Below, piece after piece: positions 1,638-1,946 of a DNA stretch of 10,622 nucleotides. Position numbers and translations under genes: made by a program. The first letter of the stretch is position 1; each line of letters starts with the position of its first letter. The DNA is from a virus: UHGV virus genome UHGV-0118722, one strand, 5' to 3'. The notes beneath the pieces are model-generated. The model was given only the letters and a program-made list of their open reading frames with translations. It had not been told where the DNA came from and made no database searches.

Positions 1638-1946
1638 TTAATATACGATCTGGTCTACATGATTACCAAAATCATCGTCGTCGTCCTCATCGCCACCATC
1701 TACAGATGGCCAATCAACAAACCAGCCAGCGTAAAGATGCAGCGTTCGGAGAACATCACTTGCGGGAGCATCAAGGGTGTTAACGAATCCCATATAGCTA
1801 TTGGGATTTGCCCCATCTATGGCTTCAGTGATCATGTCCTCGGTAATGTCACCGGAGATAATGCTTAAACGCCCGGAAACTTCTTCATTATCATCAAATT
1901 CGATAATGGCATCTCCGCCTAATGGCGCTGCGATTTTAATCTGCAT
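1638..1946 (-). CDS. Hypothetical, extremely acidic 102-aa protein with a poly-Asp segment; last gene of the operon
   Basis: Strong ribosome-binding site AAGGAG 6 nt upstream of the ATG (1944-1946). The start overlaps the last codons of the upstream 995-aa gene (stop at 1936-1938). About 17 Asp and 6 Glu against 3 Lys/Arg, including DGGDEDDDDD. No family recognised. Confidence 0.65.
   Translation of the reverse strand: MQIKIAAPLGGDAIIEFDDNEEVSGRLSIISGDITEDMITEAIDGANPNSYMGFVNTLDAPASDVLRTLHLYAGWFVDWPSVDGGDEDDDDDFGNHVDQIVY

Follow-up and report, generated by a model that had tools for sequence, protein, structure and literature searches.

Phage P1 is a workhorse phage, P1-like phage-plasmids are common, and the Dar system is a textbook case of anti-restriction delivered by the virion. 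Ocr and ArdA are dimeric DNA mimics that inhibit type I restriction enzymes. Some enzymes and effectors are controlled by small acidic partner proteins whose genes follow immediately downstream. Bacterial SSB and T7 gp2.5 carry acidic C-terminal tails with a hydrophobic tip. Within the darA operon, hxr is the only gene without an assigned role. It could add a regulator of DdrB maturation or a seventh anti-defence effector, and the results should be useful to P1 and anti-defence specialists.

The window, a stretch of 10,622 nucleotides from the virus genome UHGV-0118722, contains a P1-like (Punavirus) segment at 1539-9590 with 98% identity to phage P1. The minus strand of this segment carries the darA operon, whose features are listed in Table 1. 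The 995-aa ORF is ddrB (98.7% identity to P1 DdrB), and the 102-aa ORF that follows it is hxr. The window protein was identical to P1 Hxr (YP_006490.1, P1_gp021) at 97/102 positions (∼95%) by BLASTP (E = 2e-71). The two proteins differ by five substitutions, have equal length, and their genes have an identical overlap with ddrB. A sequence-only reading of this DNA had known of no such gene in P1 at this position, where hxr is annotated. It was mistaken on this point, as the ORF is hxr itself, a gene already known and named. The same gene appears as ORFVIII in the 1998 P1 darA-operon record (AJ000741) and as odaA/OdaA in P7. PHROG 2292, annotated as "unknown function", was matched over residues 1-102 (E = 5e-57). 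Of the two neighbouring genes, the anti-defence compendium EVADES covers DdrB and makes no mention of Hxr.

hxr comes last in the darA (defence-against-restriction) operon, a late operon of a P1-like phage-plasmid, in keeping with the earlier placement of the ORF in an anti-restriction operon. A terminator-like hairpin ∼65 nt 3' of the hxr stop codon closes the operon, and the operon terminator is annotated at the equivalent place in AJ000741. In most related loci homology to the window ends at the hxr stop, with 53/89 BLAST-matched loci starting at 1638-1640, which indicates that hxr is the last gene of a conserved module.

Table 1. Features of the darA operon and of hxr, in window coordinates.
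Feature	Position	Strand	Basis or context
lydC	7992-8273	-	darA operon
hdf	7219-7830	-	darA operon
darA	5298-7217	-	darA operon
ddrA	4936-5301	-	darA operon
ddrB, 995 aa	1936-4923	-	darA operon
HELGH, HExxH metallopeptidase motif, DdrB residues 872-876	2296-2310	-	motif conservation
Shine-Dalgarno AAGGAG	1954-1959	-	sequence read, 7 nt upstream of hxr ATG
hxr/ddrB overlap ATGCAGATTAA, 11 nt	1936-1946	-	hxr start codon and ddrB stop codon
hxr CDS, 102 aa plus stop	1638-1946	-	ATG start, P1 Hxr orthologue
Hxr residues 1-82, conserved acidic alpha/beta core (predicted)	1701-1946	-	alignment, AlphaFold2
Hxr residues 83-102, disordered polyanionic tail DGGDEDDDDDFGNHVDQIVY (predicted)	1641-1700	-	36-sequence tail comparison, pLDDT
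Terminator-like hairpin, 12-bp stem, 8-nt loop, then AUUUCU	1542-1573	-	RNA fold

The DNA flanking the P1-like segment was also examined. Window 1-1537 is non-P1 DNA and is 99% identical to mobilisable ColE1-like plasmids of E. coli with a size of 5.1 kb (mbeD region, e.g. CP057279.1). A degenerate IS1-family element occupies ∼780-1537, with an InsA C-terminal fragment at 1208-1372 and an InsB fragment at 829-1152. The end of this element (GGTGATGC…) meets P1 sequence a few bases past the darA-operon terminator. P1 isaB is absent from the window, and the IS1-like element and ColE1-type plasmid DNA stand in its place. The IS1 junction was also found in contig L015, and plasmid pECTOK-001_2 has IS1 copies directly after hxr. 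At the other end, P1 homology stops at ∼9590 within the invertible C-segment (tail-fibre Sv'). Next come a short stretch that matches the P1 S gene in inverted orientation, at 9610-9863, and a DDE_Tnp_1 (IS5/IS903-like) transposase fragment at 10050-10619 on the minus strand. The transposase fragment suggests that an IS has inserted into the tail-fibre region. A search of the window against Rfam gave no match.

The hxr start codon is embedded in ddrB. The AAGGAG sequence lies within the ddrB 3' end, where it codes for Lys-Glu, and the hxr ATG begins 8 nt before the ddrB stop codon (TAA at 1936-1938). The ribosome-binding site and the 11-nt overlap with the 995-aa gene had both been noticed from the letters of the window, and both proved to be conserved across the family. 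Of 95 related loci that include ddrB, 92 show an 11-nt overlap, two show 14 nt and one shows 17 nt. The 11-nt overlap is kept even in relatives with 28-45% identity, and a (G/A)AAGGAG motif is retained in loci whose Hxr is 28-45% identical. Since hxr starts near the ddrB stop and AAGGAG is conserved, ribosomes ending DdrB synthesis can re-initiate at hxr, and Hxr production would be coupled to that of DdrB. Judged by these signals, hxr is positioned for translational coupling to ddrB.

The sequence-only reading considered expression as part of the operon very likely. That expectation is well founded for the family, in which the coupling signals are conserved, but it is uncertain for the element in the window, in which the promoter is damaged. 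The late promoter LPdar is the sole promoter of the operon in the P1 annotation. Compared with P1, 651 bp (P1 locus L001 9420-10070) are deleted at 7957/7958, at the start of the minus-strand operon. The deletion takes out all of lydA, most of lydB and 4/6 bases of the LPdar -10 element, which is changed from TACCAT to TAAAGG. The -22 box of LPdar (AAGTTACTT) is intact despite the deletion. Because most of the -10 element is gone, expression of the darA operon, hxr included, may be poor in this particular phage-plasmid. The deletion was seen in 0/54 related loci spanning the site.

Sequence variation identified hxr as a genuine protein-coding gene under purifying selection. For the core codons of 86 close relatives, pS was 0.048 and pN was 0.008 (pN/pS 0.17), values that resemble those of the adjoining ddrB segments. 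19/30 variable sites were at the third codon position of the hxr frame. Two opposite-strand ORFs (1659-1868 and 1801-1953) were considered as coding and dismissed because the variation tracks the hxr frame. hxr was present in 479/5,426 complete E. coli genomes, and 471/482 copies were plasmid-borne. Could the ORF nevertheless be a functionless by-product, conserved only through the ddrB 3' end or the terminator region? The gene is dispensable for plaque formation, and frameshifted database copies exist, one with the shift in or near the tail (P0005) and one with the shift further upstream (P0009). Such a by-product is very improbable given the purifying selection in the hxr frame, the intact state of the gene in 99/99 related loci that carry it, and the retention of length, core motifs and tail composition down to 28% identity.

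To define the family, 5.8 billion clustered proteins were searched, and 1.84 billion representatives were scanned exhaustively with an HMM. The Hxr family is small, comprising ∼30 clusters, and those that could be placed were all on P1-like phage-plasmid contigs of Enterobacterales. Family members have 95-106 residues, save one 184-residue tandem duplication. This protein (P0015, locus L008 8205-8759) has two cores. The first core has lost the VLR motif and is followed by a short acidic linker, while one full acidic tail is present at the end of the protein. The tandem gene overlaps ddrB by 17 nt.

The family searches found no domain fusions and no co-occurrence of Hxr with other proteins. Three matches to a narrow profile were rejected. 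Two of them, P0021 (SprB/DUF11) and P0026, belong to surface or other proteins of repetitive sequence, and P0025 (DUF3854) had no match with the broader family profile. With these three dismissed, no Hxr domain fusions are left. The operon encodes a second small acidic protein, DdrA, which was rejected as an Hxr paralogue (hhalign probability 0.2%). Pfam, NCBIfam and PADLOC contained no family matching Hxr.

Hxr has 23 acidic residues (17 Asp and 6 Glu) and 3 basic residues (1 Lys and 2 Arg). The 11.1-kDa protein has a net charge of -20 and a pI of 4.05, and DGGDEDDDDD corresponds to residues 83-92, so the extreme acidity described in the sequence-only reading was borne out. As modelled, Hxr combines an acidic 82-residue alpha/beta core with a tail of ∼20 residues that is polyanionic, disordered and hydrophobic at its tip. 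The net charge of the core is -11 in the window protein and -4 to -11 across the family, which is about half of the total negative charge. The remainder is in the tail. In the family alignment G53, V65-L66-R67, W75 and W79-P80 are invariant, and the consensus near the last core motifs is VLRSLE..GW.V.WPEVEG.

The tail was compared among 36 unique family sequences. It is 18-24 aa long with a net charge of -7 to -13, and a basic residue was found in one tail only. Composition is conserved while sequence is not. The last residue of the tail is Y, N or H, and the two before it are hydrophobic. The Asp/Glu run after GG differs by several residues even between close relatives with near-identical genes, and the poly-Asp tract is encoded by GAC/GAT repeats of variable length. 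The variable length of the acidic run and the existence of frameshifted copies are consistent with replication slippage.

A first AlphaFold2 model, based on a 5-sequence alignment, had a pLDDT of 42 and was unusable. An alignment of 21 sequences was needed, which gave a pLDDT of 75.9 and a pTM of 0.65. Mean pLDDT in blocks of 10 residues was 70-90 over residues 1-80 and <55 in the tail. The predicted order of elements in the core is b-b-b-a-loop-a-b. When the model was submitted to Foldseek, no significant match was obtained in the PDB (best E 0.99) or in BFVD (best E 0.15). RapA was the sole profile match among PDB sequences and was dismissed (E = 0.37).

These data bear on the database annotation of Hxr as an Xre-like transcriptional repressor, from which the name "homolog of Xre" derives. 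The annotation goes back to 28% identity over ∼58 residues to an Xre phage repressor, given in the P1 genome record, and it has been copied into many records. Neither the window protein (E <= 10) nor any of 21 family members (E <= 1) matched HTH_3 or another Pfam family, and NCBIfam gave no match. The predicted fold opens with three β-strands and is not an all-helical HTH bundle. A pI of 4.05 with 3 basic residues is incompatible with DNA binding, and the current NCBI/RefSeq label is hypothetical protein. As there is no HTH, the Xre label is unsupported. The label is almost certainly wrong, and a repressor role for Hxr is hardly credible.

The acidity of Hxr can be read in another way, which the sequence-only reading had put forward. 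On this view Hxr is a polyanion that would serve as a DNA mimic or decoy and inhibit a DNA-binding host defence such as type I/III restriction or BREX, either packaged and co-injected or acting late. The charge density is suggestive, with -20 over 102 residues, a folded core that is itself acidic in all members and a tail that is always polyanionic. So is the company that hxr keeps, since the other products of the operon are virion-borne anti-restriction proteins, among them the small acidic DdrA (pI 4.07). That the core is without a known fold is compatible with mimicry, as DNA mimics are structurally diverse. Against this, the HMM and structure-prediction searches for a DNA-mimic fold found no likeness to Ocr, ArdA or any other solved or viral predicted structure (PDB, BFVD), and the family libraries (Pfam, NCBIfam, PADLOC) gave nothing either. 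Timing is also unfavourable. hxr is transcribed from the late promoter, and unpackaged Hxr would come too late to protect incoming DNA, so protection would require that Hxr be packaged.

Genetic data argue in the same direction. Neither a clean deletion of hxr nor a CRISPRi knock-down causes a plating defect. The secondary literature recognises six Dar proteins and does not count Hxr as one of them, even though the clean deletion exists. Finally, the strict pairing of hxr with the C-terminal module of DdrB and the similar rate of divergence, described below, are what one expects of a partner and unlike a freely exchanged anti-defence cassette. We consider a DNA mimic possible but on balance doubtful.

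Packaging itself has been addressed by proteomics. Hxr is absent from the 27-protein P1 virion proteome (PMC9024508), which was obtained by trypsin digestion with a requirement for at least 2 unique peptides. Trypsin would cut Hxr into peptides of 4, 22, 41 and 35 residues, of which one is realistically detectable. With one usable peptide Hxr falls short of the two-peptide cut-off, so its absence from that list is uninformative and carries no weight. The peptide IAAPLGGDAIIEFDDNEEVSGR is a candidate target for PRM.

This leaves room for Hxr as a seventh, overlooked Dar component. In that case Hxr, a polyanion of novel fold, would enter the head via the DdrB C-terminal module, be co-injected and act as a decoy against a DNA-binding defence other than EcoA, EcoB and EcoK. 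It would have been missed because trypsin proteomics is blind to Hxr and because assays were confined to type I systems. We regard this proposal as unlikely.

Hxr might instead be a minor packaged protein of the head interior or of head assembly, for example a counter-charge or spacer for the basic Hdf or for DNA-facing Dar proteins during procapsid loading. Hxr is expressed late together with the head-internal Dar proteins, and its net charge of -20 is nearly the opposite of that of Hdf (pI 10.2, net +21). The P1 head structure has unassigned low-resolution density around DarA-Hdf pairs. However, hxr is linked to ddrB and not to hdf or darA. Phage D6 is without hxr yet retains hdf, darA and ddrA, and no head or plating defect has been reported for the hxr deletion. 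A head protein of this kind is quite unlikely.

The link to ddrB was examined from both sides. DdrB begins with a DdrB-type ParB domain (aa 36-167; Pfam PF18763, E = 5e-39). The published domain interpretation places a zincin-like metallopeptidase at the C-terminus, which is predicted to auto-process DdrB before packaging/encapsidation (Iyer et al., PMC5512222). HE(L/V/I)GH was found in all aligned DdrB orthologues, and STE(V/I)(F/I)SM is conserved downstream of it.

An orthologue of hxr is present in the P1-like genomes, as the sequence-only reading had proposed to check, and it lies directly after ddrB in each locus examined, that is, in every examinable context among the ∼30 family clusters. 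In L095 and L097, foreign genes (HicB in one, GerE plus SSB in the other) have entered between ddrA and ddrB, and the ddrB-hxr junction is untouched. Hxr was present in 20/20 phage records with full-length DdrB. It was absent from many phages of Acinetobacter, Aeromonas, Pseudoalteromonas and others that share only DdrB residues ∼27-450, the ParB-type part. Phage D6, a P1 relative, has kept lydA, lydB, hdf, darA and ddrA, and its DdrB is a 454-aa N-terminal half. No hxr was found in D6 with the family profile (E <= 10, 11.4-kb locus) or by tblastn of the D6 record with window Hxr. The joint absence of the DdrB C-terminal half and hxr in D6 counts as a single event.

Divergence of the two proteins was compared in 12 representative loci, which give 66 pairwise values that are not mutually independent. 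Identity of the Hxr core correlated with DdrB identity with r = 0.89 for DdrB residues 801-995, 0.85 for residues 601-800 and 0.67 for residues 1-420. Individual loci illustrate the trend. Compared with the window, L005 and JK004 are 90-93% identical over DdrB 1-420, 46-47% over 801-995 and 41-47% in Hxr. L008 is 98-100% identical over DdrB 1-800, 82% over 801-995 and 60% in Hxr. In these alignments Hxr divergence tracks the C-terminal HExxH peptidase part of DdrB and not the N-terminal ParB half. The co-divergence with the ddrB 3' end could be mere linkage of adjacent DNA during mosaic recombination.

Other regions of DdrB evolve differently. Between P1-like elements the middle of the protein (residues 421-800, window ∼2520-3660) is 13-26% identical, except that residues 421-600 are 42% identical in L005 and JK004. 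Both the ParB N-terminus (58-93%) and the peptidase C-terminus (41-47%) are less divergent than the middle, with a sharp mosaic boundary close to residue 420. The DdrB middle is possibly the target-facing, fast-evolving part. A strongly basic docking surface for a polyanion was also sought on DdrB and none was obvious, as the last 95 residues are only weakly positive (net 0 to +5), which counts against an Hxr-DdrB pairing.

The strict pairing and the co-divergence with the DdrB peptidase module suggest that Hxr may be a co-translated, dedicated partner, either chaperone or inhibitor, of the C-terminal zincin-like metallopeptidase module of DdrB. It is the most economical reading, and we adopt it tentatively and give it a substantial, though less than even, chance. 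In the cell that produces the phage, Hxr would bind the module and serve as a chaperone or as a pseudo-substrate/electrostatic inhibitor. Bound Hxr would restrain DdrB self-processing or activity until DdrB loads into the procapsid, and would then be released. If DdrB packaging needed Hxr, a deletion of hxr would be expected to mimic a deletion of ddrB, yet Hxr is not listed as a Dar component, so the role of such a partner would have to be modulatory or conditional.

What this study adds to the description of hxr is the definition of the family, the two-part architecture with a tail conserved in composition, the lack of a match to a known fold and the rejection of the Xre label. Also new are the association of hxr with the DdrB C-terminal peptidase module and the inability of the virion proteomics to detect Hxr.

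How does the locus compare with known systems? Relative to P1, the terminator downstream of hxr is the same. The DNA past the hxr stop differs, and lydA, most of lydB and part of the promoter have been lost. Like Ocr (T7 gp0.3) and ArdA, Hxr is small, has a pI of ∼4, is dense in Asp and Glu, is encoded on a mobile element and belongs to an anti-restriction context. It differs from them in having no sequence or fold similarity, in having about half of its charge on a disordered tail and not on a rigid surface shaped like DNA, and in being expressed late, whereas Ocr and ArdA are the products of the first genes expressed on entry.

The Hxr tail resembles the acidic tails of bacterial SSB (…DDDIPF) and T7 gp2.5 in being disordered, strongly acidic, hydrophobic at its end and conserved in composition but not in sequence. 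Its tip, (I/V)(V/I)(N/Y/H), differs from the invariant terminal aromatic residue of SSB and T7 gp2.5, and Hxr has no OB fold. A further comparison is with colicin immunity proteins, barstar, the serralysin inhibitors (Inh/AprI) and class I chaperones of type III secretion. Hxr is likewise small (∼100 residues) and acidic. Like them, it adjoins a large enzyme or effector destined for another cell, with which it is apparently co-translated, and it is not itself known to be delivered. The comparison is one of how Hxr might work, by analogy.
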